Origin: Nemertoderma westbladi
Lineage: Eukaryota; Animalia; Xenacoelomorpha
Assembly: GCA_032718475.1 (NCBI GenBank)
Contig: JAUCBJ010007264.1
Coordinates: 31,183-95,182, forward strand
Reading direction: 5' to 3'
DNA: 64,000 nucleotides
Shown: piece by piece, positions 3,001-58,513 of the stretch
Position numbering within the stretch: the first letter of the stretch is position 1
How the letters are laid out: the number at the start of each line of letters is the position of its first letter
Made by a program: the position numbers and the translations under genes
Notes under the pieces: model-generated
The model's input: only the letters and a program-made list of their open reading frames with translations
What the model was told of the DNA's origin: nothing
Database searches by the model: none

Positions 3001-3225
3001 AGAAAATATTGGGAGACTGGAGTCATCTTGCACATACACCCAGACGTGCAAAATATAGTGCGCACAGTCACTGTGAAAATTAGGTGCAAGTGTCCGCACC
3101 CAAAGAAGTGTAAAACTAATGGTTTACACACCTTGGACCGACCGGTCCAAGATATCGTGTTATTAGAGGAAACACGCATCGAGACGGGAGATTATAATTT
3201 GTCTCCTACCTCAAAACAGAATTAG
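35..3225 (+). pseudogene. pol: Bel/Pao pol of element A (RT C-half, RNase H, integrase) with a 1-bp frameshift near 345-355
   Basis: MFHQV..LRFLW, YMDD, GFPLIKF (frame switch), FDPINFISP, HMFSDAS, PRAELQAA, WRHCPGVLNPAD, HHAG..CLVC, GVDCFGP, GGSWERL, LNSRP. Confidence 0.95.
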
Positions 3226-3979
3226 TGTTGGACGCAACTCACTTCGTATGCATTCCTTGTATGCAAATACCAGGAAATGCATAGGAGTGGGTTTGCGGTG
3301 ATTTGCGTTGAGTTTTGTCTGGTTGGTATCAAAACAAAATTTTATTTTCAAAATTTTGGAAAATTAAAAAATTTTAAAAAATTAGAAATGAACCCAAGAC
3401 AATTCCAGACGCTGTGTATAGACGCGTTTTAGAATTCGTTTATAGATATACAGTAATTTGAAAAGTCGTGAAGCCTGGAAAATAGCATTTAGAAACCATG
3501 GTGACAGCTATATTACGTAGGAGTGTAAATTGAGTTTAGCAACTTCCACAGATTGGTGCCAACAGTACAACTAAGGTGCTAAAGGTTAGTAGCACCAGAG
3601 ACGTACACGACCCCACTCAGTAGTTTGCAGTGAAGTGAGATGTTCGATTATCAAACCTGTGGGTTTGGTATAGTCGAGCAATGAGACTATTGTCCTTCCT
3701 AACTACTGTAGTTTAGTATGAGTAATGGGAGTAGTTTGGGCATCAAAAAGTGAGTTGGTCACGGCCAGTTTATCTCCAAAGTTTTTGCGCTATGCATGGG
3801 AATAGGTTAGAGGATAGTTAGGAATGAGACGGGATCTAGAGAGTCGAACCTGAACTGCTGGAAGGCGGGGGGGCTCAGGAGGTCTGTCCTTCGGCGACAT
3901 CTAACTGATTTACCCACAGTGTAATTAGTTACGTAACGGAACTTATTGGGATATATAATATGTATATACGCGGCTCATA

Positions 3980-6900: not shown

Positions 6901-7672
6901 GCAGATGCGTTGGTTACCATTTAAGGCGGGATATGGATTTTGGGCAGTAGACCCATCACACGTTGCATATGAGCCATATCTACAGTCGTTACCACAATAT
7001 CAGGAGCTCATACTAACCGCTCAAGACCTTCCACAGAACACTGAAGTCATCGTTGTTCGGGAATACTTCAGACAATTGAACATGGATAACAAGTACACTT
7101 GGAACTTTGTTGCTATTTGCGACCGCATAACGAAAGGTCTGTTTTCGGAAACTAGAAAAGTGGTGCGCGCGCGAAGAGATTGGAGGATGGCGGCTATACA
7201 GTACCGCAACGAGTTCCTATTGACTCACGTACCAGTGGGGTCATTGACCGCTAAGAGGATCGACGAACAGCGAACCGCAGCGCCCACAGCGACGACCGTT
7301 GGAGCTCAAGGCTCACGGAAGGAACCAAGAGGAGAGGTCCAAGACAAGCGTCAAGTCAAGGACGATCACTATCATTCTATTATAGAGGCTCAGCGATTGC
7401 AACGCAAGGCGCAAGGGGCGTCGGAAAAGGCCTGGGTGCAATTGCAGAAGGAAGAGTTGGTGGAAGCGACCACAGGAGCATGACAATTGGGACGAGGCCG
7501 AGGGAGAAGTACGAGCCGGGAATCTGTCGGGGCTCAGGGAACATCGTCGCCGGTTCCGGGGAGTGACGCCTCGCGGACAACGTCAACAGAATCGACTGGA
7601 GGACGGTTGGTGTATCTGGGAAGGGGGCAGAAGAGAGAAGCGAGCCCAAAGAACCCAGGAGCGGGTCGGTAA
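3980..7672 (+). pseudogene. Element A ORF2: CxxC/CxxH finger + DEDDy-type 3'-5' exonuclease + 3 CCHC knuckles, broken by in-frame TGA at 6455 and 7481
   Basis: ORFs 3980-6457, 6473-7483 and 7487-7672 share one frame. ExoI FYDNEG (5411-5428), ExoII KVGSGVQSDL, FVDT, ExoIII W..PRASLQYYLVLE (~6041). Knuckles CKLCGSTRHNQKSC, CRWCNETDHSFHTC, CGYCGVKGHRSARC. Colinear with 41559-45551. Confidence 0.85.
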
Positions 7673-12178: not shown

Positions 12179-12988
12179 GCAGCCTTAGACGAACTTCGTT
12201 GGGCTTCGTCAGGGAGTTCGGGGGAGTCTCTAGGGAAAGAACTGGGGTGGACGGTGGGATCACCGAAACAGTCGACGTCGGGATTGCAAGCGATGCCCAT
12301 ACCAGCGGGCGCCGAGGGCGAACAACCGCAAAGGAAGTTAAGGGAGTTGGAGGGATGGAGAGCTACGGGCGAGAGCCAAGGCGGGAAGGGACATAGTGGG
12401 TCCACCGGGATACCGGGGTTGGGACCACTGCGAGAGGAGGACGAGGACGACGACGAGTTCGGAGAGATGCCGCCCATCGAGAGGATAGGCCACTCGGACA
12501 CGGACTGGGTTGGCGGGAGGGTGGTGACGGCCAGTGGGGCGAGAGCCTTCTGGGACAAACCCGGCAAGCGGGCCTGGGTGCACGAGGAGCCGGCGATGGA
12601 TTTCGCGGGGAGCACTATCAGGTTGGGCAAGCAACCGGGGACGGCACCACGGGTAGTATTCGGAGAGACGATGCCCGGGAGGGGCGAGGAGATCGACGTA
12701 GACAGGGACGCTAACGTCTAGAAGTTCGCCTATCAGCGACTCCACAGACCGCGGAGATCGCTTGGGATGAAAGACGACGTGGGGCGGGAGACATTGGTAC
12801 TCGGTTGCGGCTACTGTGGGAGACAGACCCACCAGGAAAGGAGCTGCTTGTACCGGTTCCAGAAAGGGACCAGCTGTCTCTACTGCCACGAGACGAGCCA
12901 CAGGATGGGAGCGTGTCCACGGTTGCAGAACCGATGTCCGAAGTGCAACTTTCGGGGACACCACGGACGCCAAGGAGGGATGGACTGA
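12179..12988 (+). pseudogene. Element B ORF2 remnant with a triple CCHC knuckle module and no exonuclease
   Basis: ORFs 12254-12721 and 12767-12988 share a frame, split by TAG. Motifs CGYCGRQTHQERSC, CLYCHETSHRMGAC and PRLQNRCPKCNFRGH match the knuckle block of A and C. Confidence 0.7.
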
Positions 12989-13636
12989 GGCTTTGATGTA
13001 GTGCGCCTGGAAGGCGCCACGTGAGACGTGCGAACTATGTACAAATTTAATTAATGCGAATAATCATATAAGTACAATTTGTATGTACGTACGTAGCAAT
13101 CAGTAATCTACAAATATACATTCGGAGTAAGTACTATAGTCATACAACCTTTCTCAATTAGCTACTGGGACTGTGGGGTAAACTGACTATGACACTATGG
13201 ACGAGACACCAGACAATTTCACACTTCTTGAGTGCGACGGCACAAAGAGGGGGGGGGGAGATTCGTCAGGAGGAATGAGGTAGTCAAAGTAGGGTTGAGG
13301 GAAGGAGTAGTAGGTGCGAAGTACAGAGAGAGTGCGGACGCAATTCTAGTGTGGGGGGGGGGGGGGAGAATAAGAGGCTGAGTGAGGGACGAGGAGGTCC
13401 GAGTGTATGAGAGAGTTAGGATGAGAGTGAAGAAGAGATAGGGCGGAAGTGTTGGGGAAACAAAAGTTGCGTGAGAGGTGAGCGCGATCGGCCCGACATG
13501 AGACGCCAGGCACACAGGGTAGCGTTATCATACCCATAGGGAGCGGCCTGGAAAGCCGGCTCCGAGAGAAAAGAATTCCACCCCACACCCGATACTAGAT
13601 CGGGATCCAGCGGGATTGCAGCGCACTTTTTGGTTG

Positions 13637-18450: not shown

Positions 18451-19221
18451 TTACATGGCAAATAGCGGATGAAATAGAAATTATACAACGAATCGTACGA
18501 AACTCGTTCAACGAAAAGAGGTAATAAAAAATAGTAAAAATATAACCAAATTAATGTGCTTACAGTACTGCACTATATTAATTTATATGTATGTTGTAGC
18601 CACGGTATAGAATCTATCAATATTGCCTTCATTATGTATAAATAAATGATATATTTTCGAAAAGTGTTTATACAGTAGAAGCTGGTTGATTGATGTAGAT
18701 TAAAGTTTATTCTTATACTTAAATACTGTACTGTGTCCTATATGTAGGCCTACTGTAGTGATTATGTAGGCCTACTGTATAGTGTTGCAGCAACCACTGT
18801 CTCACCCCCCCCCCCCCCCCCCCGGAAAGAGTTGCCGTGGGTGTCAATGAATAATAAATGAATTGCTGCCAGGTGCAGCTGACTGACGGTTTTTTTTTAT
18901 AAATAAATAATACGATTGTAAAGCCTTGTACTTTGGGATGTAGAAGGCCTGCAATTCCTCATAGATCATCATAGTGAGGTATATCTCTACATAAACTCAG
19001 ATATACTGTAGTTCTCCTAACTGAAACCTCAACTTCTACCACAACTAGTAATTACTACCCATTCCACTCACCTACTACCAAACCCTCACGTGGCCGGTGT
19101 ACAAAGGCTGAGATTGAGATAACTCCCTCTTGAATTGACTCCCCAGTCATCTCAGCCTGTAAAAGCTTTTGCAGACATACCAAGGACGGGAAGGAATAAC
19201 GGGAAGGAATTAAAGCCAGTA

Positions 19222-21900
19222 TGACGAAATCTGTCAGCTGATTTCTTGTGGACGTGGAATTTCTTTGTTCTGCCTTATTCAGCCAATCAGAGCAATTTTC
19301 CCTTTATGTCTGACAGAGGCCTATGGAAACTCGCGCAATGCACTACGGTCTTTGTTTACTATTTTTCTGAGCATCAGAACCGGCTCGGAATTTTCTGTGC
19401 TTCTGTGTAGAAGTTTCAGACTTTGGCCTAGGAAACATCAGATGGCCTTGATTATAAGAACGTAAATCTATTATCCTACTTAATCACCGCATCACATTTC
19501 ATCATTATCAACTGCATTTCATAACTGCATAAGTAACACATACTGACTGTTCACCGCATTATTTTACTTCTGTTATTAATTGTTGTTATATTAATGGATA
19601 TTGCTGTTATATTTGGAGAATACCGATAAATAATCATAAACCCGTCAATCTTCTTGATTACTGAGGTAAGAGGAACAGGTTTACCGGTAGCAACTGCGAC
19701 TTAAATTATAGTGGTTTTTGTGTGAATTAAATGCTATTTCATAATCCCTACGTGTGTCAGTTGCTATCCTCCTTATATATGATCAAATTCAGTGACGGTC
19801 GGCAGATCAGTGCTAAGTAGTGTGAAGTAGTGTGAAGTCGTGTGAATTAGTGTGAAGGTTAATAAAGCATCTCCTAAAGAATGCGCTATTTACGAAACTC
19901 TGTGGCCATCTAGTTGTGATTAGTATAAGTCATAACTCTGTTTTTATACTTAAAGCGCCACGCCCTAAAGGAACTGTTAATATTTCCCCGAAAGTAAATA
20001 TATTTGTCAGAGATTATATAGTAACGATCAATTGAATAATACAGTAGGTCTACACTGCAATAACTCTCAAGGAATCCGAATCCAGTCTCCCAAATCGTGG
20101 GTGATAGGTCGCGCACGGACTGGCTTCGGCTGATGTAACTTCAGTACACTAGATAATTGATATAGGCTAAAGTCGATTTATAAACAAGAGGACAACTAAA
20201 ATTGGCAGGTTAAACTGCTAAAGGTCTAAAAGCGCGAACAATAATAGATTTAAGTATCTTTATTGCGCCGTAGGCAATAAAGTCAAATGTACCGGTCGGA
20301 CGGTAAACTGTAGGCCTAACTGCCCAACCACCTGAACCGGTACTTACAGGTACCCAGTATTATTTCGATTGTGATATATTGTATAATAGTAGGCTGTTTA
20401 AGAGAGTAGGGACTGTACAGTACACCCCTTATTTCTTTTAGAGCTTATTTATTTCTGTCAGTTTTATTTATCTGTAAGTGGAATATTGAGCAGAAGGCGT
20501 GTAAGCCTGCTCAGATTGTATAAATAATTTGTAGGCCGGATTGTTGTCTAACTGTTGTTAGGTCTGAGGCAATTGCAGTGTGTGTAGAGTGTCTGTCCGA
20601 TAAAGTGCTAGTTAGGAAGGTGGGGGCATCCAGTGCTGTAAGGTAAAACCCCCCCGAAAGAATAAGTCATAGTACTTGGTTAGAATGCCTACTAACTAAC
20701 CATTTCGGAGTCTGCATATACTGTAGTAAATTTAGGCTTGACAGTAGTCTGCCAGCATTTGGTCTGTGTTTTATTTGAATAGTCTGCACGGGTAGCGTAA
20801 TATTTATTATTCAGAGTCTATGCGAGTATTCGCAACCTCCAACTCCCCAAGTTTATTCCTACAGTAATTGTGCTTGTTATACATACCGTTATAGTTAAAT
20901 TAACCCCGGTACTACATCAGGGCTGCTTGGCGTAGGTAAAGACTGGTGATTTTGTGCTCCGGTCACTCCAGCAGATACCATGGTTCTTTTGGCTGTTCAA
21001 GTATATTTAACTGCTGGTTATTTGTTGTATAAGTACTTGTACCTAATTTAGGGTTTAGGGTACAGTGCTTTCCGAAAGTAATTTAGTGTGTAGGCAGTAT
21101 ATTTGTGTTGTAAGTGGTTAATAGGCACGTTAGCTCTGGTTGGCTTCGGTAATTAACCTCTAGGTAGGGACATTCCGGGTACATAACGTAGTACTTATAG
21201 AGCTAAGACTATAAGTAGTCAGACGGTGGTATTTCCTTATCTGGACAACGCAACTTACTTACTACTACTTTATTGTTTTCAACTACCGTAGTTTCCTGTC
21301 AGTTTGTAAGAACCAGAAATTATAACTCCTTGTTAGGCTGGTTTGTAGATTTCTTATAAAATTACCCTAAAAATTGTACGTGTAACTTGTTTATTGTTTA
21401 TTTAGAGATTGTAATCTCAACCTGTTGTAATTGTAAGTAATTTGTAGTGATAAGTAACTTAGTAAAGTAGAATTATCTGTATTAGTGTCCAACAAGTAGC
21501 ACTCCACTGAGAGCGTTCAGCTTCTGTGTAGTGACTCCTTATCCAGAAATAATAACATTTATTTCAAATATTGTCAAAAACCCATTGTACGGGTATATAT
21601 ATATTTATAAATCAACTCAAACAGATTTATAAAATAGTAGGCCTGTTATAAATCAATTAGGTCTTAATATCAGTTGAACTACTGCTTAATATCAGTAATA
21701 AAGTAAAGGGAAGTAACCCTAAAATTCAGAAATTCAGTTATTATAAAATAATTGACATTACCGGTATTTACGGTAAGCTTACTATATTTATATAAATTTA
21801 GGCTGAAATTATATACCGGTATTCTGTGACTGAACCTAGTCTGTAAATAATACTTATATATATACTATAAGTGTATACCGGTAGTTTAATATTATATATA
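19222..21900 (+). mobile_element. Truncated C-family element E: 5' LTR (~19222-20240) plus 5' leader, no coding region
   Basis: LTR TGACGA...GCGCGAACA is homologous to 40053-41008 and 63282-64000. 20800-21900 is homologous to the C leader at 55460-56807. Confidence 0.85.
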
Positions 21901-27988: not shown

Positions 27989-28014
27989 TTAATGATAATC
28001 GTATCCGACAGTGA

Positions 28015-34368: not shown

Positions 34369-34369
34369 C

Positions 34370-36987: not shown

Positions 36988-37163
36988 TGGACGGATCCAT
37001 ACTGGATGTTGGACGGATCCATACTGGATGTTGGACGAATCCATACTGGATGTTGGACGGATCCATACTGGATGTTGGACGGATCCATACCGGATGTTGG
37101 ACAGATCCATACTGGATGTTGGACGGATCCATACTGGATGTTGGACGGATCCGTACTGGATGT
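36988..37163. repeat. 22-bp minisatellite x8
   Basis: Same unit as 24621-24884; 176 bp. Confidence 0.95.
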
Positions 37164-37622: not shown

Positions 37623-38371
37623 TCAGCAGTGACGGCCGCATTGGTACAAAGTGTATCCCATTAAATTCCAAGTGCCCCTGTTCCACTCCTCAGTTTCACT
37701 TTCATAATAACACTTCATGCCAGGGCAATCTTCCTTATATAGTTCGTTCTAACAAACAATAAATCATCACAAACAAAATTAATCGTAACAAACTAGTAAT
37801 TTATCTAAACCTTAACATTATCCACCAAATCCCAATTTACTGTAGTATATCGATTTTGTATATAAACCGCAAGTACGAATAATTATATTTGATATATTAA
37901 TAATAGATATTGCCATATTGGGCTAAATAGGAACTGAAATCCTTATAGGGGGAAAGGAGCAGGTTACAGTGGAACGCTATTTTAACCAAAACAATAAACT
38001 AAGCACAATAGAACAGGTTACAGTTATATTTTTGAGAATAATCAGCTGTTATTTGCGTCGAATTTCTCGATTACTTTTACGTAATGAGGACACCCACTCA
38101 CTACTCTTAAACAACAACAGCGTATACTACGAGAACGTATGGTAGTCGATTATCGCCTTGGATTATCCTATTTGAGATTCTTACCAACCTGAGAGCAGCA
38201 TTTTGTACAGGTGTGTTTATCTCCACTTAGGGTATAGCATTTCTGATTTCGCTCGGCAACGTCCAGGAATGCATCAGCCTCAGACTTGTTTACCTCAGGG
38301 TGAGGGAGTTCCCGTCCAAGGGTCATACAGATGTGTAACAATACAACAGATAATATCAACATAGAGTTCAT
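37623..38371 (-). CDS. Secreted cysteine-rich peptide precursor, copy 2 (exons 38371-38189 and 37748-37623; 102 aa)
   Basis: Mature NQKCYTLSGDKHTCTKCCSQ|NELYKEDCPGMKCYYESETEEWNRGTWNLMGYTLYQCGRHC*. Frame and all Cys kept; stop changed TAA to TGA. Confidence 0.75.
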
Positions 38372-40052: not shown

Positions 40053-41008
40053 TGTTCGCGCTTTCAGACCTTTAGCAGTTTAACCTGCCAAATTGGGATG
40101 TCTTTTAGATGATAGATCGTCTTTAGCCTATGACAAGTATTTGATACCCTACATTAGCCGAAGCCAGTCTATGCGCGATCATTCACCCGTTGGATATACC
40201 CGGGAGACTGGATTCGGAAGCCTAACCGTATTGCGGGGTAGGCCTACTGTATTATTCGACTGATCGTAATATATAATCTCTGACAAATATTATTCACTTT
40301 CGGGAAATATTAACAGTTCCTTTAGGACGTGGCGCTCTAAATATGTAAACAGAGTTATGACTTAAACTAAACACAACGGGATGGCTATAGATTCATGTAT
40401 ATGGCGCATTCTTTAGGAGATGCTTTGTTATCAGTCACAATCATACACAATACTGCACAATGCTGCACACTAATCTGCCGACCTTCACTTATTTTAGTCA
40501 CATATAAAGAGAACAACAGACAATACATGTAGGGCCTATGAAATAGCATTAGATTCACTTCAAACCACTTAATGTAAGTCGCAATCGTTATATGTAACCG
40601 GTCTCTCTAACCTTTAGTATATCAAGAAGATTGGGGTGTCTGATTATTTATCAGTATTCCAAATATAATATTCCATCAACAACTATAATGAATAACCGAC
40701 AGTAAATAGCAGTACAAAGTTTAAGGTATGAATGGTTTGTTAAGTTATGGATTGTTTAGTTAAGTATGTTATGGTTCGGATTGATAACAGATATACGTTC
40801 TATAATTAAGCCTACTAATGTTGGGCTAAAGACTGAAACACGGAGGTTCCAAAGCCGGTGTTCTAGGCTGTGGACAAAATCACATACTGTCTCAACTCCA
40901 CGAGTTTCCGTATACAATCTCTAACGCAGAGGCAAAAAACGAACAAAGAAGGAACAGAGAACAAAGAAAAAGCTCCACATGTACAGCATCAGCTGTTAGC
41001 CGTCGTCA
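40053..41008 (-). repeat. 3' LTR of element C
   Basis: TGACGA...GCGCGAACA, homologous to 19222-20240. The 3' end is exact; the 5' end is inferred from loss of similarity. Confidence 0.8.
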
Positions 41009-41558
41009 TGGTAGCTACACTGTTTCAAGAGGATCCGGCGTATTGCATCATAGAATTGCTAATTATGTCCGCTAAAGTACACATACAGAAGAAATGGCTT
41101 TTATGTCCTCTAAAACACCAGTACAGTAAGGACACGGCCTTTTATGCCTGTTAAACCAACTACAGAGTACTTTACGGGGAAAATAACCGGCTAATTCCGC
41201 AAAAGCCTTTACACCGCTCCCAGAAAATGGGATTTAAGTCTATAAAATATAACAAATCACAGTTTCTAAAATATAAAAATACTCTAAACAGTTAGTCTTT
41301 CTTACGCGGACGGCGTTTACGCAGTTTTTTGAGGCTAGCAAGAGTCCTTTTCTCTTTGGGGCGAGCCACTTTACTAGGAGGGCTGTAACTCCTGGGTGAA
41401 GGGTGCAATACAATTGCATCAGAAGGTTTAGGATTACGATCGGTGTATCCGCCGGTCGAGGTACCTGGTTGATCGATATCAACTTCAGTGGAGCGAGGTC
41501 TAACGGCCTTTAGGGCGCGTCTTAGGACAGCAGCTCCTACGGGTCCTTGACGGGTCGT

Positions 41559-44500
41559 CTAGACAATGGCGGTAGGCGGACCGTGAGTGGTGAGAAACTT
41601 CCTTGGTTTAATGGTTCTTTCCAGCTCGCGTTCTCGGGCTCGATATTCGTAGGGCCGTCGAGATACTTCCTGTAACTCAGGGTGCGAGTTGATAAATAAA
41701 TCGCCATACTCAGGGTCTTGACGGATGAAATTGATCAAATGATATGAAGTAATATCGTTAGGATTGACGTTCCTAAGATATTTTCGAACAAATTTGGTGG
41801 AAATACACTCACCAACACGCTTCATTAGTTCGTAACTCGGTGTGCGTGTTTTTTGTTCCACAGACGCGAATAAATAAGGATGGAACGCGTAAACTCCCTC
41901 GTAAGAGCGTCCAGGGTAGTAGCGATGGCGGGACTCACAATGTAAATCCGCGTTCGCTTCCCAAGCTCGGATGTAGCGCAGGGTAATCATCTCATCTATG
42001 CTTTCTAAATCGCGGTTAAAGGGGCAATTATAACTGGCATGTCCTTTAAGTTGACAGTGGTGGCATTGGGTCATAAATTGGGGGCAGACTGCAAAAATAT
42101 GCGAGTTATTAAGTCTGCAATACGCACAATAGATCTCCATCATCGGTTGTTCGTGGAAATAGGAGCAGGGTACGTCTGAGTCCATAGGGGTGAAATGGTC
42201 TCTCGATGCGCATAATCGACAACGTTTTCGAGAAACGTAGTTGGCGTGTCGATAATCGTATGCGGTGAGACATTGTGGACCTTGATACCACTCCAAGACG
42301 TAATCGTTATCGCTGCTCCGGGGCGCTGTAGGCTGGATCGCTTCAGACTCTAAGCAGATTGGTTCGTCTTCCAATTGCATAGCTGAGGTAGGTGCGGCTG
42401 TCTCCGCAAGCGGACCCACTGTCTGAACTTCCCGTGGGTAACCCGTGGGTATTCGGGGTCTTTGTATAACAGATGAATGTAAGTTCTGTATACAAACGTC
42501 CTGAAAGAGGGCAAATCCCGCGCTGTTTAGCTTCTCCGCAGCTGAGTCTCTTAGGCTGAGTTTGGTCAGAGCGCGGTCCTTGAACTGACTATCAACGTTA
42601 CGGAACGGAGTCAGAAAGCGCCTGAAACATTCGAAGCGGATGAATTTATTGTGTTCATCTAACTTGGCGAGTTTGGTTCCAAGTATTAAGGGATGGGCGC
42701 GTATGCTATGACTGCACACATCGGCTAGCCAACCGGCAAGTGCTGCGTTTTCAAAGATCGTGTATATAGCTAAGGAGGGACGAAGTGGAACACTCATAAA
42801 GCTATACACAGCGCCAGTTGCGGTCAATGGTCCATCAAAGTATAAACGAGAATAATGATCTCCATATACTTGTTGGTAATTTATAGGATTTCCAACCTTG
42901 AAATTCCATCCGTATTCTTGAAAGGCAAGATGTCCGATGGAGGTTCGTTGTACTTTAGTAATGCCGCTGGGTGTATTGGCATACATAGTGCGGAAGAAAC
43001 CTCGGCCTTCTGCCCAGGGAGCAATCAGCTGAGTATCAACGAAAGGGTATGGAATGTTCTCCATATTCCGAAAGTCGTTTTGTAGGTCTCCATAAACAGC
43101 TGAGCCGATTTTAAGGATTCTTTCGTTAAACAACATCTCGAGCACGGGCTGGGGTAACATCGATCCATCGATACCCATGGCCGGTTTGCGCTCGGTGTCG
43201 GTGACGTAACGCTGCGCGAGTTCGAATTGTCCATGTCGGAGTTTCTTTTGTGTCTCAGTAAGAGTTTCAAAAGAATAATCAATCACATCGGAACACGCTC
43301 GAGTAAATACGTGGGTAGAACCAGCGAGTCCTCGTATGTGTATCATCCGCGTAGTTCCCAGTTCTCCAACCGGAACGCTACCTTCGTTATCGTAAGTGAC
43401 AACTCCATACATCTCGATAACGTTAAGAGTTTCGTTCCACTCTTTAGTGGCGTTTTCGAGGGTCATTCCCACAGGATGCCACAAGGTAGCGCATTCGCTA
43501 GCATTAGGTAGGTCTCTATACTTTAAATATTGTGTGGTATATGTTTCCACATCTCCATATCGTTGTATTCTTTCCTCCTCGAATAACACGTCAAGATTCC
43601 AGTGTACTAAACGAGTTTTGATGAATCCATCAAGATTATACGGAGGTATTGTTTCTTTCTCTATTCTGGAAACATTATATGGTTTTCGAAATGAGTTTAC
43701 ATTAACTAACTGATCCAGATGTTTCTGCAGTTGTTCGAGTTCGACAAGATCGAGAGGATTTATTAGTGGTAGAAACCTCAGACTATGTGTAGGATCTTCC
43801 GGTTTTACCATGTAATATTGTGTTAGATTGACGTAATAAGGGTGATCTTTGATCCCATAAAACGAGTCCGGTAAAGGTCTAGCGCGTATGTTTACATCGT
43901 GTACCATGCGACGGACAAGATCCGCTCTATTGTCCGGAGGTTCAACGAGTATACCATCGACACGAGCGGCTTCGATGGGCGGACGTTGCAACATGGGAGC
44001 GTCAGCGATAAGATCTCGAGATCTTAGGTTGATATCAACCGGTTGGGGTTGTACCGTCGCAAAGAGTTTGTCTACGAAATGGGGAACCATCGAGGGATGA
44101 AGGATGGTTTTAGAGTAGAGATCCGTCATAAGGATTTGAGCTTCGGGTTGAGCTAAAGCTGCTTCTTCTCTCTCATCTAGTTCTATATGTCTCTCCTCGA
44201 GCTGATTTTCCTCCGCTTGTTGTTGTAGACGCTCATCTAGGAACTCTTGTAAAGAGTAGGTTCATCCACGTTCGATGTCCTCCTCGAGATTTTGTATTTC
44301 TCTATCGAACTGGGGTAAAGCTAATTCCTTCACCGCTTGGACTTGTTGTTGCAATTTACATTTCTCCAAACAATCGTAAGTTCCCTTTCCGATTTTCAGC
44401 CGAATAGTGTCTAACGCGTTTCGTACGACGCTCTCTTCGACTTCCGTAACGGGTTGGATCGAGGTGAAGCCGGGACGGTTGTATGGGTTAAACGGGTTAA

Positions 44501-45551
44501 ACGGCGATATTAGATGACCGCGTCCCAATCCAGCTAGGTAGGGTTGGCGAATATCTAGTGAGCCTACTACCGGAGTGCCACCGATCAACTGTTCGGGTAA
44601 CACTAGATCTTTGAACAGTGAGTACAGTTCGGGAGGATCCGTGATACTATTAGGATCAAGAGTCTGAGGTCTAACTGAGGAATGAGGAGGTCTGACCGAG
44701 TATTCCGGAACTCTGATCATTGGTTTGTTCAAGGATCGTTTGAGTCGAGCGACCGTAGGGGATACGTCGAACAGGTTTCGCTCGAAACTCCCATAAGTAT
44801 ATCGTGTAAAACTGTGTTTAGCGCAACGTCTCCGCGGATGTTTATGTCTTTCCGTTTGCTGATTGGGTCTAGGGCATTCGTCGCAGTAATACCAAAGACG
44901 CACGTCCTGCAGGGGAAACGCGGGTGATCGTTCTCCAGTTTTACAATATTCCTCCATCTGTTCGAAGCTATCTGGGACGACAGGTAGCGGTCGATCGGCG
45001 GTAAGATACATCATAGTGAAATAGAGTCGTTTGAGTTCTATCATAGGATCATGATGTATACCTTGAGGATATCGAGTTTCGAGATTTTGTTGACTGGCAA
45101 TATTGAGGTATGTCTCTCTAAAGAATTCCAGATAATCGTTGAAGTCGCTGCGTTTATCTGGCTCTTCAACGTCTTCCCTTTCGAGTCTGTTTCGAATAGA
45201 GTTCTCGTGTTCTATTCTCGGTTTATCGTTCCGACTCCGCTGGGTATGATATTTAAATAAAACCATTTCCCTTTCGGTATCTACATCGTCCGTATTGTGT
45301 AAATCGATAGGATGGCCGGTAGTTAAGAAGTCCATATACGTACCATTACGATGCGTATAGCGAGCGGTGAACTTTCTATAATCCAATTCACGCGTAAGTT
45401 GCTCCGGGCACATTGGCGGTTCGATATAACGACCATCATCCTCCGTAGTAGTTGGACCAGCGTCGCCGCGTATCAAGCTATCGACAAACGCTTGTAAAGG
45501 TAGAGTATATCGCTCCCTGATACTAAGATCATCTTCTATCAACTCAGTCAT
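41559..45551 (-). pseudogene. Element C ORF2 (1330 codons, one internal TGA at 44262-44264): CxxC/CxxH finger + DEDDy-type exonuclease + 3 CCHC knuckles
   Basis: Both ORFs share a frame with 44 open codons between (ERG*TYSLQEFLDERLQQQ..ILMTDL). Motifs TYDNEG, KIGSAVYGDL, FVDT, SIGHLAFQEYGWNFK, PLRPSLAIYTIFE; CRLC..H..C, CAYC..H..C, CHHCQLKGHASYNC. Confidence 0.88.
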
Positions 45552-47193
45552 ATCTGCTATGAGTTTATCAATATTATTATGAGTTTATATATTAGGCTAG
45601 CGGGCGTCGCTGCCTACCCCTCTTTTGCCCCCGGACAGTGCAAGATCCTCAGCGCCGATGTACCGTCGTCGCTGTGCTTTCGCCAACGATGTAGCTACAC
45701 AACGACAACGATAACCGGCACAAGTCACTCCACTGTCCGTCCCAAAGGCTTAGATGTACTTCAGGTTCTTTCTGGAGAGTTAGGGCTACTTTCACAATTG
45801 CGACAAGCTACTGTAAACACACTTTAGCAGTAACATTCACCTATGAACGCACAAATTCAACACAACTGCCACAAACTGTACACATTCGGGCCATTTGTCC
45901 GTTAGTCAGTACCTTCCAGAATGTCACTTTATTTATTATGTATCCTTGGATACTAGCAGTGCGCTATTTATTCCCTATGCTATTCAATGGGGCAAGCTTT
46001 CTATTGTTCTGTTAACTCACTTCTAATTCTAGCGTGGTTGTTGCCATGGTGACATTATGGAAAGCTAGCGGTATAATTAGGGTAATTCTCATGCATACAG
46101 ATCTGGGATGCTATTTAATAGTAATTCTTTAATTGTCAATATCCTCTCTATACATGATTTTATGAATTTTATCGGCTATTGACTATATATTGGAGATTCT
46201 CGCACACAAATACACTTAATAGAGTGAATCTCCGCTCCCATGATCTATTAATTAATGGAATTTTTGGGAATGTTATAAATTGTATAAAATGACAATTTAT
46301 TAAATTCATTGAAATATATGAATTTAAATTTATTCCCGTAAATTTTATTATTTAATGTTAAATAGACACAATTTTATTCCAGAACGTGTCTGGGGACTAC
46401 TGGGATCCTTGATTCTAGGAATTTTGTCTTTTTAAGAGTATCGGTAAGTGCTACGATATCTTAATCGACTAGAATTTTAAAGGATCCAAAATTCGACAGA
46501 TTTTGTAAATATTAATAATTAATATTTAGGATGGGCACCAGTTTATTCCAGAACTTGTCTGGGGACGTTAACCACTGATTCTAGAATTTTGTCTTTCAAG
46601 TATATCGGTGGGTGCCGCGATATCTTAATCGACTAGAATTACAGATGGTCAAAGGGTTTAACAGATTTATTTGCGTTGTACGCTACTGTTAAAGGGACAT
46701 CACGCTACTATATGTATTATTTAATATACGGTATGAGAGCAATATCGCACGAAGCAATGTCAGTGAGAAGAGGCAAGTCGTTTCCAAGGTCTACCCAGAG
46801 CTTGGTTTAGCCGAGACACGAGGATCTGAATTTTGCATTCCTAATACTCTGCTTACCAATAATACTTAAATATAGTAGGAGCTTTATTGTACTTTAATAA
46901 GTACGGACATTTCATCTTACTGTAGTTATGTATTTGTAATGTAATACGGACGGACAGTAAGGAAGGAGAAAAAGAATTATTTCTCGCCGTCGCACTAAAT
47001 ATATAATATATAAGTAATTAAGTAATAAACGCTAATATATATAGCACTAATCTACTAAATAATCGCTAAAATAACATTCTACTAAATAAAATTAAAGAAA
47101 ACGATTATAATAAAATTACATAATAACACATACATAAATATAAAAGAATAAAAACAAATATAAAATATAGTCATACACCCACTCCAGTCGTTG

Positions 47194-50100
47194 TTAAGTT
47201 GGGGAGTCCCTAGATGTTTGTTGGATTAGGGAGGTGGTCGTGGGAAGAGTATCTTGCCTTCCATAGTTTCCGGAGAGTTCTCTGTCTCTTTCCAGTAAAC
47301 ATAAGCGACCAACTGGGCGATTGAGCTGCTGTGTCTCGAAGACAATTCCCGGTTTCTTGAAGTTACGTCGCATGATGACGAGTTCTACCGATCGCACCAA
47401 ACCGTCCTCCGAGATGTGAGTCTCGATGATACGACCTGTCTGCCACTGCTTATGTGGAAGATCTACATCCACAATAAGAACCATGTCTCCAGCGATGACG
47501 TTTTCTTGCTGCGCAAACCACTTAGTTCGAAGTTGTAGCGTGGGCAGATAATGTTTTTCGAAATGGTCAGCGAAACGACGGGATAACAACTGCATGAGTT
47601 GCCAAGTTTGCCGGCAGTATTCGTCTCCGTCTGTGATTTCCGATTGTGGGAGCATGGCTACAGGTTTCTTCAGTAGGAAGTGCGCGGGTGTTAGCGCTTC
47701 CAGGGAATCGGGACTCGATGAGACTGGCATAAGCGGTCTCTCGTTGAGATAGGCGGCAATTTCCTCCATTAACGTCCGCAAAAGTTCGTCGGTGAGATAC
47801 GCGCGGCAAGGCACTATAAAGTGAAATGCTGTCTTCACACTTCTTATTAATCTCTCCCAACTTCCTCCCCACCAAGGGGCATCGGCGGCGTTGAAGGTCC
47901 AGCTAGACGCTGTTACTCGTAGCTGATCGTCCACCTGTCTTTGGTTCCAATCTTTGACGTAAGCTTTGATTTCATGGTTGGCACCAATGAAGTTTGTTCC
48001 CTTATCAGATCTCATCGTGTTACTAGTGCCAAAGCGAGCGATCTGTCGTCGTAAGCTTAATAGAAAGCTGTTGGTAGATAAATCGTTCACCATATCGAGA
48101 TGGATAGCTCTACAAGTCATACAAACAAAGATGACACACCATCTCTTGACTATAGTCCTAGCACGATATACTTCAATAGGGCCAAATAAATCCACACCGG
48201 TATTAGTAAAAGGTGGTTCATAGAAGCTTACTCGTTCCCTAGGTAATTCTGCCTCTCGCTGTGTTAAAGGCCTACTGAATGCTTTCCTACAGGGTATGCA
48301 GTTCCTAAGAACTTGGTTCAGAGCTCTACGGGGTTTATAAAAATAATAGCGAGTTCGAATTTCGCTAAGAACTCGTTCTCTACCAGCATGATAAAGTTTG
48401 CTGTGAACGTCTACAATCATCTTGACTTGTATTTCAAGATTTCTAATGAGTATGGGAAACTTAGTGTCAAAGGATAATGGAGCATTCGTTAATCTTCCTC
48501 CAACACGTATCAACCCATCTATCATTGTGCTAGAGAAACGATCCCTTAAGCGCATCTGCGGAGATCTCAACAACAGGAAATACTTATCGGAATCCTCATA
48601 GCATTGCAGGAGTCTCAGCATCTGCTTGTTGGTTTCTTCATGCTCCTGATAACTGATCTTCTCCTTCAGAAACCTGTCGGATATATTATATTTGGGAAGA
48701 TCTTTAACAACATGGACCTGCACCGATGTTAGTGGAGCGGTATCACTTTTGGTCTTCATCCCGGAGTAGTGATGGTGAAAACATCTTTTTAAATATGTAA
48801 CGGCCTTACAGAGCCGATTCCAGGAACTGTAGTGATGTATCGCTCTCTGCAGGAGAGGTGAGAGTCCTTACGAGACGTCTGGTATTCCAGATTTCCAATC
48901 CTTCTCACGGATTTCCACAACAAGTTTATTTGTGGCTGTGGGTTTCTGATCCAAAGTGTCGTCTCCGGAAGTATGTAGTACAGACAGATCTACCATGGGT
49001 TTGAATAACTTCGATTTACTCGCCCGAGTTTTAGGTTTGACTTTCTCCGCTCCCTTGGCCTGTCTAATCTCTGCTGTAGTAAGATGAGGAGGCCATTCTT
49101 CTTCTTCTTTGTAGAGGAAGTCGGGTCCACCTAACCAGTCTGGAGTATCTACCAGTTCTCGTGGAGTTGCTCCCCTGGAGGCGATGTCTGCTGGATTAAT
49201 CGTTCCGGGGCAATGTCTCCATTGATCCATCGTTGTGCGACTGAGTATAATGGCTACTCTGTTGGTAACGAAGACGCTGAACTGACAGACTTCATTGGTT
49301 ATATACTCCAACACGAGTAAAGCGTCGGTCCAATAGACAGTTTTCTCCAGTGGATAGTCGATCTGTTCTGTTACATTCCGGCCGATGGCTGTAGCGTATA
49401 GAGCCACCTTTAACTCCGCTCGAGGAACTTTCAACTTGTTGTTTATCAGTGCCTTAGAGGTAACCAAGGCGACTTTGATTCCGTCCGGAGTTTCCACCCT
49501 TAGGTAGGCTACTATACCTATTCCCATATCGCTGGCATCTCCAAACACATGGAGTTGATAGGAATACGTAGGGAGAACATGACCAAAATATGAACGGGAA
49601 ATTATAAAGTTCTCGATGGCTGGTAGAGAATCTTCCCATCTCATCCACTTCTTTAATAATTCTCCCTTAAGTGGATCGTCCCATGAGTGGTTTTCAAGCC
49701 ACATTTGTTGTACTAAACTCCGAGCAATCAATATAACTGGGCTAATAAATCCCAATGGATCGAAATAAGTGCTCAGGATACTTAAACAAATCCGTTTAGT
49801 CCGAACTGGATTATCTCGCTGTTTTAGTTGGAAAAACAGGATATCTCTTTCTGTGTCCCATTTCAAACCAAGGGTCTTAGTTTCTGGGAGATCATCTTTT
49901 ATTAGATCTAGGTCTTTCGCTCCTCGATCTTCTACCGGGATCGATTCCAGAAACTCATGGGAGTTGCTGGTGAATTTAGTTAATCGAAATCCACCTCTTT
50001 TTAAGCACTCTACAGTTCCTTTAGCGACGTCAATGGCTTCTTCGACTGATAGAAGGGACTTTAGATTATCGTCCATGTATATATCCCGCTTGATGTTGTC

Positions 50101-53100
50101 AATCACCTCTTTAGAGAAGGCTTCTCGGTTGTCATCCGCAGTGGTGCGCACCACTGAACAGGCGTTTGAAGGGCTTGAGATTATCCCAAAAGCCTGGATG
50201 GTCATCCAGTACTCCACCGGTTTCTGGTTGAGGTCTCCTTCAGGCCACCACAGAAATCGTAGGCTATCTCGATCCCTATCCAGCGCCTTGACTTGTAAGA
50301 ACATGCCTTCTATATCTGAGGCGAAAGCAATTGAATATTGTCTTAATCTTAAGAGTATTCCCAACAAGGATTGGAGTAAGTTGGGTCCGGGTAACAATTC
50401 GGAATTAAGGGATTGGCCCATATAGAGGGCGGAGCCGTCAAACACCACTCGTACCTCATGGGGTTTACCGGGTTTGGGAACGTAATGGTGAGTTAAATAA
50501 TACGTTCTCTCAGTTATAGGTGTTTCTTCCGGCACTCGCTCTGCATATCCCTTGCTAATAAATTTCCTCAACTGCGTTTGATACATTTCTTTAGCTGAAG
50601 AATTTGCCGTAAGGCGTCGATGTAGTTGAGCAATTCTTTTCTCCGCCAAGGGTCTGTTGTTTATGAACTTTGGTTCTCGCTTTCGGAAAGGTAGACCGAT
50701 TTCATATCTACCTTGATCTTTAAGAAAACGTGTAGTTGTCTCTTGGATCTGCTTGGCTCTTTCTTCTTCTACCGATAGGGCCTTATCGTAGGAATTGGGC
50801 TCTACAGCCTCTTGAGTAAAGAATCGTACGGCGTGTTCATCCCGAGTCTTGGCATTATAACGTTCAATGACGTCATTAAGTTCGTCGTTATAGTCGTCTC
50901 ATTCTGATGGAAGAAGGAGCTGACATAAGTTCACTTGGTTTTGCCAAGTCTCGTTTTCCTTAAGGAGATCAATGGTATTCTCCTCATCGAAAAGCTGGTG
51001 GACATCGTCATTATCTGAGGAGTATGGTGTTCCCTCAGTTGGATCGTCTAACTCACTGCTCTCGACTTCCCATTCTCTTACCTGATATACCTGGTCTTTC
51101 GGTAATCTTTCCATGAGAGTTCTACGGGAAGGGCCAGTAAATTACCAACCCACTCTAGTTCTTCCTGCATAAGCTTGTAGTGGTTGCGGTTGAGCAGGCT
51201 GTTTCTCCAATGTCTCGAGCGCTTCATGCGCGTTTTAACCGATGAGTATTTGCACTCCAGGGTAATCGGTGTTGAATCTAGGTATTTCAAGCTGCTGGGT
51301 GAAATCGTCCTCATCCCAGTTATAAGGTTCCACTTGGGTGGTAGCGAAGTTCTTTATCGCCACCATTTTTACTGACCTTATACTATGTTCTCCTAGTTCA
51401 TCCTGGGGGGTGGACAACGCACCTACATAATAATCCGCTATTACTGTAGATTTCCAAACCTGCATAATTCCTGACATGTTTAGCTTAGTTCGGAACTTGG
51501 GTTGTCCAGCAAAGATGTCTTCGGCTAGTTCTTTGTCGATGAATGTTCCTGTACTACTGGAGTCAAGGAGGGCGTTCACTACATAACTCCTTTTAGGTCC
51601 GTGGACCCTTAACTGTACTACAGGAAATTCTCGGATTCCTACATTGGAAGGTGGCGCTTTCCAAGATGGTTGTCGATCAGAAGTAGTTAGGGTGAGGTCG
51701 CTGTCTGTGTCTTTTTCATACGTAAGTGCTCGATACACTGCAGTATTTATCATGTAACAGGATTCATCTTCGTCGGAAAATTCATCTGTATAGAATCCTT
51801 CCATCTCAGAGCTTTGGTCAGTGTCGTTCACATCACTGAATTGGACATGTAGTTCGGAATCACTTACCTGACTCGGGCTGTTTCGTTCGAATTCAGTGTG
51901 CAACAAGATATGATGTTTCGCACCGCACTTTGCACACCTTGTGTCAGAGTAACAGGTTCGCCGTTGGTGTCCTTGTCTGAGGCAATTATAACACAACCGC
52001 TTATCCCACATGACTTCCCGTTTCTCCGTTAATGATTTCTTCAGGAATTCATCACACATATTCAAACGGTGGGTCCCGTCACATAGCACACATTTCGGTT
52101 TGATGTTACTTACCTTATTTTGAATAACATTGTGCACACTCGTTCTTTCTTCGGGCTTTCTCACCTGAATTCTCTTAGGAGACGTAGGAGGAGTTTTTCT
52201 TACCTGTTCTCTCCTGTCATTGGTTCGAGACTTGAATTTACTTACCTGTTCTTTAGGCGTTTTATTGACATAATAAGATCTTTCAGTGTCTTTCCCGCTA
52301 TCCTCTCCTTGAGAAGTCTGGCTTTCGCCGTCGTCGGTATAACACACTGGTGTTACTTTTCTCCTAGAAACGGGTTTCTCACTTACCTTGTTTTCCGGTG
52401 TCTTCTCTCTGGACTGCCTTAGGAGCTGTAATTTCACTTCTCCATCTAAGAATGACATGAGATCAGCCATGGTAGGGTCTCGTCGTTGTTGTTCCATCAT
52501 ATATAACACTTTCTTATCCCAGCGTGTACCTACTCCACCCCTTCGGTAAAGTAGAAGCCACGGCTCCAATAACCATAGAACTCTGATATTCATGAGACTT
52601 ACCTAACCAATCTAATTGTCTACAGATCTCTTGAATCTCATCGGAAAACTCTATTATCCCGCTGCTAATGAACTTTCGGGGCGCTACTAATTTTGCATAC
52701 AAATATTTAGCTATGTTATTCCTATTACCATACCTGATGTTTAGTGTATCCCAAACTTGTCTTAATCCATCTGGATGTCCAATAAACTTTAACGCCATTA
52801 ACTTGGGAGATCCTTCCAAGCACTCGATGAGGAATCTAAGTTTCTCTCCATTAGATAGCACAGAGTTCTGTATGTTATCTTTGTAATATTCATTAAAAGG
52901 TAACCATTTCATCTCATCTCCATTGAACTTGACGATCTCTCCCACCTTTACCGCTTGACGGGCTTCGGTTCTAGCCATTTGACGCGTAAAACTTTCTTGG
53001 GCCATCGTGTTATTTAATATCGAGTTATCGGTATATAAATTTCTCGGATTATTATCAAGTCTATATGGGATATCATTGTCAACAGGTTTATAATTACCCT

Positions 53101-55357
53101 TAATAGGGTTTACTAAAGGAGTTTCCACTTCGCTAGCAGTATAGATGCGTGTAGGCTCCACACCTTGCGCATGAAACACTTCAGACCTAACAGGTTGACA
53201 CATTGTTACAGGGGGTGGTGGTATACCCTTTTGTGTATTTACTAATTTATCGCTTTCTAACGCGATACTTTGCTGCACTTCTTGCAACTCTAACCTACTT
53301 TCCCTTACTGTGCCCTTGAACTGCTTAACAGTCTCCTGCATCTGCCCGAGCAGGAGATCCATCCCCCGCCGTCTCTCATCTACCCACTCGACCGCCGAAG
53401 CGGGAGCCGCCAACGTTGTAGCGGGCGGACGAGGGACAACGGGCGACAAATCATTAATATTTCGCTCGGAGTCCAGGACATGAACTGTCTCATGGGCTGT
53501 TCTGCTGGGCACAGGTAGCTTGGTGCTGTGCAGAGGGAATTTAGAGATAGGTTCAGGGAGTACAGGTGTCTCTATCACCGAGGGGGTGGCTTCGAGAACA
53601 GGCCTAATTATTTCAGGCTCATCTACTATAGTAGGGAGTCTTTCTATTTTAATTATTTGGTCTGTGGGTTCTGTACTACCTAAGCCTGTGTTAGTTAGTT
53701 GCCTTCTAACAGCTGGGGGCAAATCAGGCAATTTCTGACGGTGGGACATTCTTCTACGTCTGCTGAGACGAGATCTATTTCCTCCACCTTCAGTATCGGT
53801 GGTATTGCCTTCCTCAGATGATGTATATCCCTGTCTTTTGGGAGTAGATCGATTCATCATCTGCATATGACTAGCTGTTAACTGTTTATTTATGCAGTCT
53901 TGATTCTCTTGAATATTTTCCAACTCCAGTTGGGTGGTCTCTTCAGATGCTCTTCTTTCAGCTTCTGCCACTGCCGCTGCCACTACCGCCTTTCTTTCCG
54001 CTTCGGCCGCTGTCACTGCCGCCTTTCTTTCCACTTCGGCCGCTGCCACTGCCGCCTTTCTTTCCACTTCTACCGCCTTTCTTTCCGCTTCTACCTCTGC
54101 CGCTGCTGCTGCCGCTGCCGCTTTTCTTTTCGCTTCTGCCGCTACTACTGCTGCTGCCACTGCCGCTGTCTTTCTGTCTTCTATACGTTTTTTCTTTACT
54201 TGTTCTTCTTGGACCCTAGTGATGCGGAGGCGTTCATCAAATGTAGCTTGGTTCGCAGCTATCCTATCCGCATCTATTGCGTCCAACACAAGCTTGGCTC
54301 CTTCACTATTAGGGCTAAGTCCATCTAGCCTTCTCCTCAACTCTTCATCTCCTACAAAACGTTGACAGTCCGTCAGATAGATGTCAATGGCATCCCTCTT
54401 ATGCGGTTTCTCTGCCGTCACTTCACTTTCCAGTTGGGAAAATGTAGCGTCTGTTGATTCTCCATGGGTTGAGCGCTCATCTAGCTGAGCTTTCCACTGA
54501 GCCGTTCCTTGAACCTGGAGACTCACCCGTTGAAACCAAGTCTTTACGGCAACTTGCAACGACGTGTCTTGTCTTCTTTTAGAAGCCTCCTCAAAGGCCG
54601 ATAAGATTAGCCTGATTCGTAGAATTATTTCTCTAACTTGATAAAGCAGCTGTCCCTGCTCTTGAGGTCCTTGGGGTTGTTGAAACAGTTGTTCTTTTAA
54701 TCGCTCCATAGAGCTGAAGAATCCCTGTATGTATCCTGCTGCTGACCTCTTCCACACAGCTGGATCGATGGTTTCTTTTGTTACTCCCATCCTGTGTATG
54801 TCTTCCCAGGCAGCTTCCAATAAGTCAAACGGGAGTCCGGGTCCGGGGAAGTTCCATTGCGACTTGACAATAGACTTCAGTTCTTCCCTTGTGTATCCCG
54901 CATAACTATCCTTGGTCGACCGCTTACTTCTCGCCCAATCAATCTGGTGTTCTTCCACCGCGATCAATACTCTAGTGAGTACGGCTGCAGGAAGGATGAG
55001 AAGGGGATCCGAATAAACCGCATCCGTCATCTTTGCTCCGCGCTCGGGTGTCAGCTCTACAGTATCCTCACTACTGGAGCTGTCGGGCCGTTGAGAAATA
55101 AGTTCTCGGCTCGCGGGTGGTTGCTGTTCCGCTACTTCTTGGTCCCGCTTGACCTGAGCTCTAGTGCCTATGACAGACCTACGATGTTGGACTAGCCTAG
55201 GGTCTGATATTACTACGGGAGGGATGATCTTTCTTACAGTAGGAGGTGAGTTAAACTTCGGTCCTACACGTTCCACACTCCTGTCTGGGTCACAGATGGT
55301 TGTATCTAAGAGACTGTCTGACAGGTTTTGCTTTGTGTCAGACATATTTGTTTGCAC
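47194..55357 (-). pseudogene. gag-pol: Element C gag-pol (Gag, protease, RT, RNase H, integrase); one frameshift (~52540) and four in-frame stops (51235, ~51140, 50899, 48868)
   Basis: FNGDEMKWLPF Gag core; Pao triple knuckle CVLC/CYNC/CAKC..HHILLH; ALLDSSS; RVVFDGS; SDIEGMFLQV; YMDD; VFGDAS; GVDLFGP; GGSWERL. Confidence 0.95.
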
Positions 55358-55479
55358 AGTTGAATGCCTACTGCTATATTACAGTTAAAGCAAATCTAGT
55401 AATTCAGTATCACGGTTAGCCTAGTAATTGATTACCGATACTGCTACTCAGTGTAGCGTGATATATATATAATATATTA

Positions 55480-55860
55480 GAATACCGGTATGCTTATAGT
55501 ATATATATAAGTATTATTACAGACTAGGTTTGTCACAGAATACCGGTATATAATTCCAGCACAAATATATATAAATATATAATAGGCCTATCGTGGATAC
55601 CGGTGTGCAGTTTACACTTATAGTATATATAAGTATAATTATTAACTAGAATTAATTACAGAATACCGGTATAATTTCAGCCTAAATTTATAAATATATA
55701 ATAGGCCTATCGTGAATACCGGTTTACAGCTTACACTTATAATGTATATATATAAGTATAATTACAGACTAGAATTAATTACAGAATACCGGTATAATTT
55801 CAGCCTAAAATTTATAGAAATAAATATAATAAACCTATGGTAAATACCGGTATGTCAATT
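55480..55860 (-). repeat. About three tandem ~125-bp AT-rich units with TACCGGTA palindromes in the C leader
   Basis: Repeated ACAGAATACCGGTAT..CAGC..ATAGGCCTATCGTG; a single unit in element E (~21760-21900). Confidence 0.7.
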
Positions 55861-56807
55861 ATTTTAAATAATTGAATTTCTGAATTTTTAGGGGTTACTT
55901 GGTTACTTTACTTACTTTATTACCGTTATTTGAGCAGTAGTCCAACTGATATTTAGACCTAATTGATGTATGGCAGGCCTACTATTTATAAATCGTTTGA
56001 GTTGATTTATAATATATATACCCGTTAAAATGGGTTTTTGTCAATATTTGAAATAAATGTTATTATTTCTGGGGGGAGTCACTACACAGAAGCTGTGCGC
56101 TCTCAGTGAAGTGCTACTTGTTGGACACTAAAACAAATAATTCTAATTTACCTAAGTTACTTAATACTACAAATTACATACAATTCGGGTGAGATTACAA
56201 TCTCTAAATAAACACAAAAATTACAAGTACGAATTTTTAGGGTAATTTTACAAGAAGTCTACAAACCAGCCTAACAAAGGGTTAGAATATCTGGTTATTA
56301 CAAGGACAGGGTACTACGGTATTTGAAAATAATAAGTAGTAGTAAATATACTGCATTGTCCAGATAGGAAAATACCACCGTCTGACGACTTATAGCCGTA
56401 TCGCTATAAGTACTACGTTATGTATCACGGAGTGTTCCTACCTAGAAGTTAATTACCGCGGTCTACCAGAACCAACGTGCCTATTAACCACTTTACAACA
56501 CAAATATACTGCCTACACACTAATCACCTTCGGAAAGTACTGTACACTAAACCCTAAATGAGGTACAAGTACTTATACAACAAATAATCAGTAGTTAAAA
56601 ATACTTGAACAGCTAAAAGAACCACGGTATCTGCTGGAGTGACCGGGGCACAAAATCACCAGTCTTTACCTACGCCAAGCAGCCCTGATGTAGTACCGGG
56701 GTTAGTTTAACTATAACGGTATATATAACAAGCACAATTACTGTAGGAATAAACTTGGGGATATGAAGGTTGCGAATAATCGCATAAACTCTGAATAATA
56801 AATATTA

Positions 56808-58511: not shown

Positions 58512-58513
58512 TT

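Follow-up and report, generated by a model that had tools for sequence, protein, structure and literature searches.

An accessory gene for a predicted DEDDy-family exonuclease with zinc knuckles on Bel/Pao elements of Nemertoderma westbladi

Described exonuclease cargo and the Nemertoderma element

Bel/Pao retrotransposons carry gag and pol and sometimes an env gene. RNase D-like DEDDy exonucleases, with a DEED motif, are already known as third open reading frames (ORFs) on other retrotransposons, namely the rotifer long terminal repeat (LTR) elements Juno and Vesta and the Athena/Terminon elements (PMC5408684, in the part cited throughout; the account is repeated in part of PMC6431247), which bears out an earlier note on the present DNA that had mentioned such cargo in bdelloid rotifers. 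By analyzing 64,000 nucleotides (nt) of Nemertoderma westbladi (Xenacoelomorpha; GenBank assembly GCA_032718475.1, contig JAUCBJ010007264.1, positions 31,183 to 95,182; hereafter the window, to which all coordinates refer), we found a gene, ORF2, with a predicted DEDDy-type core behind the pol of a Bel/Pao element. Our preferred reading, held tentatively, is that ORF2 specifies a conserved accessory RNase D-type 3'-5' exoribonuclease that trims the element's own RNA.

Like the ORF3 of Juno and Vesta, ORF2 occupies the place of env behind pol, has an RNase D-like DEDDy core, lacks a membrane helix and shows one altered motif acid (PMC5408684). The rotifer genes are borne, however, by Juno, Vesta and Penelope-like elements, the survey in that article listing Juno, Vesta, TelKA and Mag, and its cited part describes neither a triple-knuckle fusion nor an internal stop, while the last motif acid of ORF2 is Glu and its frame comprises 1419 codons. 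With env-carrying Bel/Pao elements, e.g. roo and mosquito elements with a chuvirus-like glycoprotein (PMC13524379, in part), the focal element shares an extra gene on a Bel/Pao backbone, but ORF2 has no signal peptide or membrane helix and its architecture is soluble and nucleic-acid-binding. As the earlier note had expected, no Bel/Pao lineage with a DEDDy-knuckle fusion, nor any Bel/Pao exonuclease gene, was found in the full-text literature, although supplements, Repbase and Dfam lie outside that coverage and could hold one; the word exonuclease is absent from the available main text of the Bel/Pao survey PMC3118150 and of PMC13524379. Novel features of the gene comprise its Bel/Pao host, its fusion to knuckles, an almost complete lack of relatives, an internal UGA that is probably conserved, and a link to an LTR of self-priming type.

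Position, extent and conservation of ORF2

The ORF2 frame runs on the minus strand from 45551 to 41559, begins 1.64 kb past the end of pol and contains one in-frame TGA only, at 44262-44264, much as the earlier note had it (a single same-strand frame with one TGA, after pol and a spacer of about 1.6 kb). Comparison was made with four runs, three of organism A and one of organism B; five of seven runs contain the stretch or part of it. At the TAG that closes the frame (41559-41561) all covering depth differs in 4/4 runs, so this stop is private to the present copy; past it, 88 more codons of the frame lead on the same strand to a basic tail (41292..41561 with the TAG, end at 41292). ORF2 is consequently a frame of 1419 codons and not of about 1330 residues as first estimated, and a single uninterrupted protein of 1330 residues is not what the family encodes. 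Its order of domains is a zinc-finger candidate, a Glu/Gln-rich stalk, the TGA, the RNase D-like domain, an acidic linker, three zinc knuckles and the basic tail. The part ahead of the TGA, ORF2a (44265..45551, minus strand; 429 codons), has a conserved C-x2-C..C-x2-H zinc-finger candidate at 44885-44814 and a Glu/Gln-rich end, and shares 31% identity with the N-terminal region of a second ORF2 copy in the window (E 3e-14). Since no 19-residue window of ORF2 exceeds a hydropathy mean of 1.19 (highest means in window proteins 1.07-1.34), it has no membrane helix and is not an envelope protein, in agreement with the earlier note; no env family match was found among the window proteins with Pfam, nor the signal peptide and membrane anchor of an envelope glycoprotein.

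ORF2 is real and element-borne. It ends upstream of a purine-rich tract and a TG..CA 3' LTR (together 40053..41227, minus strand), the LTR measuring 1161 nt (first TGT at 41213, last ACA at 40053). The ends of this LTR are fixed by relatives, both being shared with 19158-20240 (74% identical) and the 3' end also with a copy ending at 63282. On the other side lie, likewise on the minus strand, the Bel/Pao pol (47194..50898; reverse transcriptase (RT), RNase H, integrase and DUF5641; Peptidase_A17 E 3e-35, DUF5641 E 1e-19) and the gag and protease region (51235..55378), which consists of two overlapping frames with DUF1759 (E 4.6e-11) and a zinc knuckle. With Pfam the Bel/Pao set appears in order, i.e. 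DUF1759 gag, Pao-type RT/RNase H (PF05380, Peptidase_A17), Integrase_H2C2 and DUF5641, and the Bel/Pao identity claimed before is thereby established. An in-frame stop in pol (48868-48870) is also private to this copy, all covering depth differing in 4/4 runs. The 64-kb window contains no matching 5' LTR for the focal element, which without it measures at least 16.8 kb. An LTR copy at 63278-63968 was considered as the 5' LTR and rejected, as it is only 75% identical and abuts the pol of another element. Of the expectation that ORF2 and pol lie within the same LTRs, the 3' half stands, and in a second element ORF2 likewise follows pol; the 5' half finds no LTR in the window.

This second Bel/Pao element (220..7483, plus strand) consists of a pol (220-3225) and a diverged ORF2 copy (3959-7483), whose core is 25% identical to the focal one (E 5e-35) and whose zinc-finger (E 3e-14) and knuckle (E 2e-15) regions match as well. 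Among the four Bel/Pao RT/RNase H regions of the window, those of the two ORF2-bearing elements are mutually closest (45.5% identity), while the other five pairs share 28-34% (focal against the remaining two elements, 33.6% and 28.0%), which fits inheritance of the gene within one sub-lineage.

The family is very abundant, with 59,930 contig pieces aligned in one run, and 30/30 bins of 40600-49000 are covered in contigs of 4/4 runs; summed contig depth was not taken as copy number or used for ranking gene parts. Between 43340 and 44300, the two deep runs show 33 differences that account for at least 45% of depth, and 23 of these are silent as against 9.4 expected when identical substitution types are placed at random, a number that 0/20000 simulations reached; the comparison concerns common differences over less than a quarter of the gene and is not a dN/dS. 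Third positions hold 21/33 (p 0.0004). Purifying selection on ORF2 is thus shown. Certain copies have nevertheless lost the nuclease. A net deletion of 2725 nt (41433-44192; runs X1 and X3, 2/4) removes nearly all of ORF2b, i.e. the part behind the TGA, and keeps ORF2a with its stop, so that the nuclease is dispensable in cis; it would act in trans, and copies deleted for it would still spread. An in-frame deletion at 41641-44185 (net 2532 nt) was seen in run X3, and a further internal deletion at 42372-45184 in runs X4 and X5.

The RNase D-like core and the zinc knuckles

The core (42750..43394, minus strand) is an RNase D-like DEDDy domain with insertions. Its motifs lie where the earlier note had placed them, namely ExoI D-x-E (YDNEG, 43394-43380), ExoII (KIGSAVYGDL, 43112-43083), FVDT (43043-43032) and an ExoIII candidate of the form P-x7-Y-x3-E (YTIFE, 42764-42750). 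A three-way alignment of the two window copies with P0001, a homologue from a protein collection (27-32% identity), leaves D-x-E, K-x-G-S..D-L, D-T, G, F-K, Y-G and P-x7-Y-x3-E invariant. Pfam gave no exonuclease match for the window proteins, and the assignment came from profile comparison. Matches of the focal core to RNase D in NCBIfam (E 0.006) and of P0001 to PF01612 in Pfam (E 0.2) both fall at ExoII and far below the cut-off. A reference profile of PF01612, from which 80 enterobacterial RNase D loci were kept out as too similar, except for the same E. coli gene as L082, placed the three homologues first to third among nine proteins. Comparison of profile with profile (hhalign) yielded a probability of 90.9 (E 1.1e-6), with 0/100 block shuffles as good, and the region of the ExoII Asp was the top site of the position-specific scoring matrix (PSSM) in 3/3 homologues.

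By its K-x-G..D-L and P-F-x-D-T stretches, its D-x-E start and its P-x7-Y-x3-acid end, in that order, ORF2 resembles the RNase D/Rrp6/WRN/Mut-7 group (PF01612; PMC3985635, in part), within which RNase D is the best fit. It differs from this group in staying below all curated cut-offs, in insertions at two sites (about 30-40 residues), in Glu at ExoIII, and in being fused to knuckles and having no HRDC match. Subgroup profiles gave 88% for RNase D, 8% for stand-alone exonucleases and 5% for polymerase I. Together with the lack of a fusion to the RT and the wide differences between copies, the first and last of these values speak against a 3'-5' exonuclease acting on DNA, for the proofreading or trimming of the cDNA of an unusually long element. 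We consider this explanation quite improbable, although the size of the element, the existence of proofreading domains among DEDDy enzymes and a stretch behind ExoII that weakly resembles polymerase I would suit it.

Several observations weigh against the exonuclease assignment, and with it against our preferred reading. The reference profile was built from 70 PF01612 domains that are bacterial only. Taken alone, ExoI is matched by 6/40 shuffles and ExoIII by 9/40, even though they align to the reference DTE and RPL..Y, respectively, and in the PSSM ExoI ranks first, fourth and below fourth in the three proteins, while ExoIII ranks second with a negative score, or below fourth. The motif spacings of 98-101 and 103-112 residues exceed the 57-76 and 69-85 of the references, the I-II spacing of P0001 (68) excepted, and ExoIII closes with Glu in 3/3 homologues as opposed to Asp in 70/70 references. 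Both structure predictions were low (predicted local distance difference test, pLDDT, 30 and 33) and a fold search on one of them returned nothing, so that the DnaQ fold called for by the earlier note found no backing in the models. P0001, for its part, is known here from protein sequence alone. In addition, PDB sequence searches gave no exonuclease match, and PHROGs yielded just one exonuclease family at E 0.42, plus unknowns. Of the proposed DEDDy assignment, the homology of ExoII and the order of the motifs stand; neither ExoI nor ExoIII is significant by itself, and ExoIII has Glu for Asp. On sequence grounds, the ORF2 product is very probably a DEDDy-family accessory protein.

A reading in which the DNA beside pol encodes no exonuclease, or is a host gene or other insert next to Bel/Pao debris, would account for the missing Pfam match above cut-off, the missing fold and the missing paired 5' LTR, in a window that is a nest of rearranged elements. 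It appears very improbable, since ORF2 takes the same position in two elements whose copies are 25% identical, no introns are seen, the purine tract and LTR enclose it, its copy number is high, and three independent libraries or profiles converge on the same ExoII stretch.

The three CCHC zinc knuckles (42024..42221, minus strand) are present in 3/3 homologues and are followed by a conserved W..H..R region. Their profile matches are to retroviral nucleocapsids (best E 0.0024), and they also resemble the knuckles of Air2. They were found at 42221-42024, where the earlier note had put them, with the qualification that the first, C-x2-C-x4-H-x9-C, has a long last spacing. Of the multidomain protein proposed there, i.e. 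zinc finger, DEDDy exonuclease and triple CCHC, the element-borne gene, the three knuckles and the DEDDy-like profile are upheld, with the reservation already made for ExoI and ExoIII.

Whether the enzyme works is a separate matter. A catalytically dead or weak RNA-binding carrier, comparable to Egalitarian, EXD1 or Rev, could instead export or localise the genomic RNA. Maelstrom and EXD1 are described as such inactive RNA-binding derivatives of DEDD enzymes (PMC5408684), and the change of the last catalytic Asp to Glu in 3/3 proteins, the long insertions, the knuckles, zinc finger and basic tail, and a sister element that retains knuckles only would all suit a carrier. Were ExoIII placed instead at the conserved Y-G (Y466 of the 900-residue frame), the spacing would be the usual one, but no acid is present there in 3/3 and the site would be dead. 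Yet D-x-E, the ExoII Asp, the Tyr and the acid are kept across 27-32% identity, and a dead domain usually keeps less. We therefore regard the carrier as unlikely, and judge from the motifs that the exonuclease is probably active, with less assurance than we place in its family membership.

The internal TGA, the self-priming signature and the substrate

The internal TGA (44262..44264, minus strand) is not among the 33 common differences in 2/2 deep runs covering the site, so that most copies probably carry it; the listing for the whole stretch, with 40 of 1664 rows listed, is uninformative on this point. From the TGA up to the following Met, silent changes make up 5/7 of the differences (p 0.023), in keeping with translation past the stop. 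The TGA is probably common to most copies as a signal for read-through or for two products, and not damage. The single TGA of the earlier note is accordingly present as stated, though probably as a family trait and with the true end of the frame further 3'. The second ORF2 copy has no stop at the position matching this junction; its one stop (6455-6457) sits between exonuclease and knuckles. A comparable case is Tca2 of Candida albicans, in which an in-frame UGA is bypassed without a canonical local signal (PMC2194720, in part); that UGA lies between gag and pol and was tested, whereas the one in ORF2 lies inside an accessory gene and its bypass is inferred.

A possible substrate is suggested by the LTR related to that of the focal element. 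The 12 nt directly after this 5' LTR (LTR and primer site, 19158..20252, plus strand) are complementary to 19463-19474 inside it, an exact match 305 nt into the same LTR, and there is no tRNA-type TGG. A complement of this kind occurred in 8/5000 Markov controls and in 0/325 downstream 30-mers, which suggests a primer site of self-priming type in the related LTR. The same LTR precedes a leader (19158-21901 in all) that shares 87% identity with the stretch ahead of the focal gag.

Under our preferred reading, a subgenomic message would give ORF2a, and a minority of ribosomes would pass the shared UGA and add the nuclease and knuckles, so that the enzyme stays scarce. The knuckles would load it onto the element's own RNA, where it would trim single-stranded 3' ends; its preferred substrate would be the ends of RNA-RNA duplexes of the element itself, e.g. 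the self-primer, cut back to the paired part. RNase D-type enzymes trim the single-stranded 3' tails of structured RNA (see PMC5408684). A self-primer tail and an enzyme that trims 3' tails back to the duplex would suit each other, and the own-RNA reading is favoured for this reason. As the main substrate, the element's own RNA is a reasonable possibility, slightly short of an even chance.

Further points stand on the other side of the balance. The focal copy is without its 5' LTR and primer site, the mode of priming being borrowed from a 74%-identical relative, and in the focal 3' LTR the counterpart of the complementary site (about 40795-40784) has 2/12 positions changed. No stem-loop follows the UGA (z +1.5), the next base is A, and the shared state of the TGA hangs on the absence of one row in one comparison. 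Finally, the ranking of substrates is itself inferred, and nothing singles out the element's RNA over host small RNAs.

Those small RNAs are the target in a counter-silencing alternative, in which the exonuclease degrades or over-trims host Piwi-interacting RNAs (piRNAs), small interfering RNAs or their precursors and protects the family in trans. The same anatomy fits this, as do the dispensability in cis seen in the deletion form and the great abundance of the family given above. Viral DEDD nucleases are employed against host defence, which counts in its favour, and mature piRNAs are usually 2'-O-methylated and resistant to such enzymes, which counts against it. The DEDDy enzyme Nibbler shapes the ends of microRNAs and piRNAs (PMC5622571, in part), but the presence of the rotifer DEDDy ORF3 does not clearly track copy number in the account of PMC5408684. 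On balance, counter-silencing seems somewhat unlikely. The most far-reaching picture, of a giant self-priming Bel/Pao lineage with a nucleocapsid-armed RNase D-type enzyme that is rationed by UGA read-through and either matures a self-made primer or disarms host small RNAs, is likewise doubtful as a whole.

Relatives, neighbouring elements and meaning

A profile of the two window copies had P0001 as its sole match among 1.84 billion proteins (E 4.9e-9), a singleton of 648 residues in which the exonuclease core is followed by three knuckles, as in ORF2. In a word- and length-limited search of a 5.8-billion collection, 0/4351 candidates were relatives, and only P0001 was found again among 7989 and 7993. 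None occurred among 345 candidate stretches in metagenome contigs, among 149 in viral contigs or in phages, and no rotifer DEDDy sequence was among the matches from the protein collections.

Within the window, a knuckle-only frame (12179..12990, plus strand) with two complete and one partial CCHC and no exonuclease lies behind a third Bel/Pao pol (8171-11026), from which it is separated by an array of 35-37 nt tandem units at 11156-11685; its similarity to the knuckles of ORF2 is weak (E 0.005). At 8175-8195, 700 nt past the second ORF2 copy, a purine-rich word followed by TGT resembles the focal junction of tract and LTR and is joined to the RT of another element. A fourth Bel/Pao element (58243-63306, plus strand) has a 268-nt LTR, a TGG-type primer site and a gag-pol of 1536 codons, whose integrase is interrupted by a relative of the focal LTR. 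Two copies of a long non-coding repeat, 95-98% identical and including a tandem array of 22-nt units, occupy 21995-28488 and 34046-40055.

The remaining parts of the focal element lie on the minus strand. The leader upstream of gag (55463..56807) contains tandem units of 119-128 nt and is the part 87% identical to 20798-21901, behind the related LTR. The gag frame at 52514-55378 has an unusually long N-terminal part, with about 800 codons ahead of DUF1759, and an Ala/Glu/Arg-rich repeat at 53944-54166. The spacer between pol and ORF2 (45552..47193; 1.64 kb) is non-coding and AT-rich, and indels are common among its copies. It contains a duplicated unit of 167 nt (46338-46640), and at 46282-46230 the short purine-rich word found ahead of the 3' LTR occurs a second time, possibly as a relic of a tract from before the capture of the gene.

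Bel/Pao elements here carry an accessory gene that is old, under selection and nearly without relatives in the databases. ORF2 extends the DEDDy cargo known from rotifers to another superfamily, and adds to it a fusion with an RNA-binding part and what is probably a recoding site. As a single frame holds the nuclease domain intact, the question raised in 2017 on the activity and substrate of retrotransposon DEDDy cargo becomes directly testable. Either outcome, if true, would add a step new to retrotransposon biology, be it an active anti-piRNA enzyme or one that matures primers, and the element would be a retrotransposon with a recoding-controlled accessory nuclease in the style of complex retroviruses.

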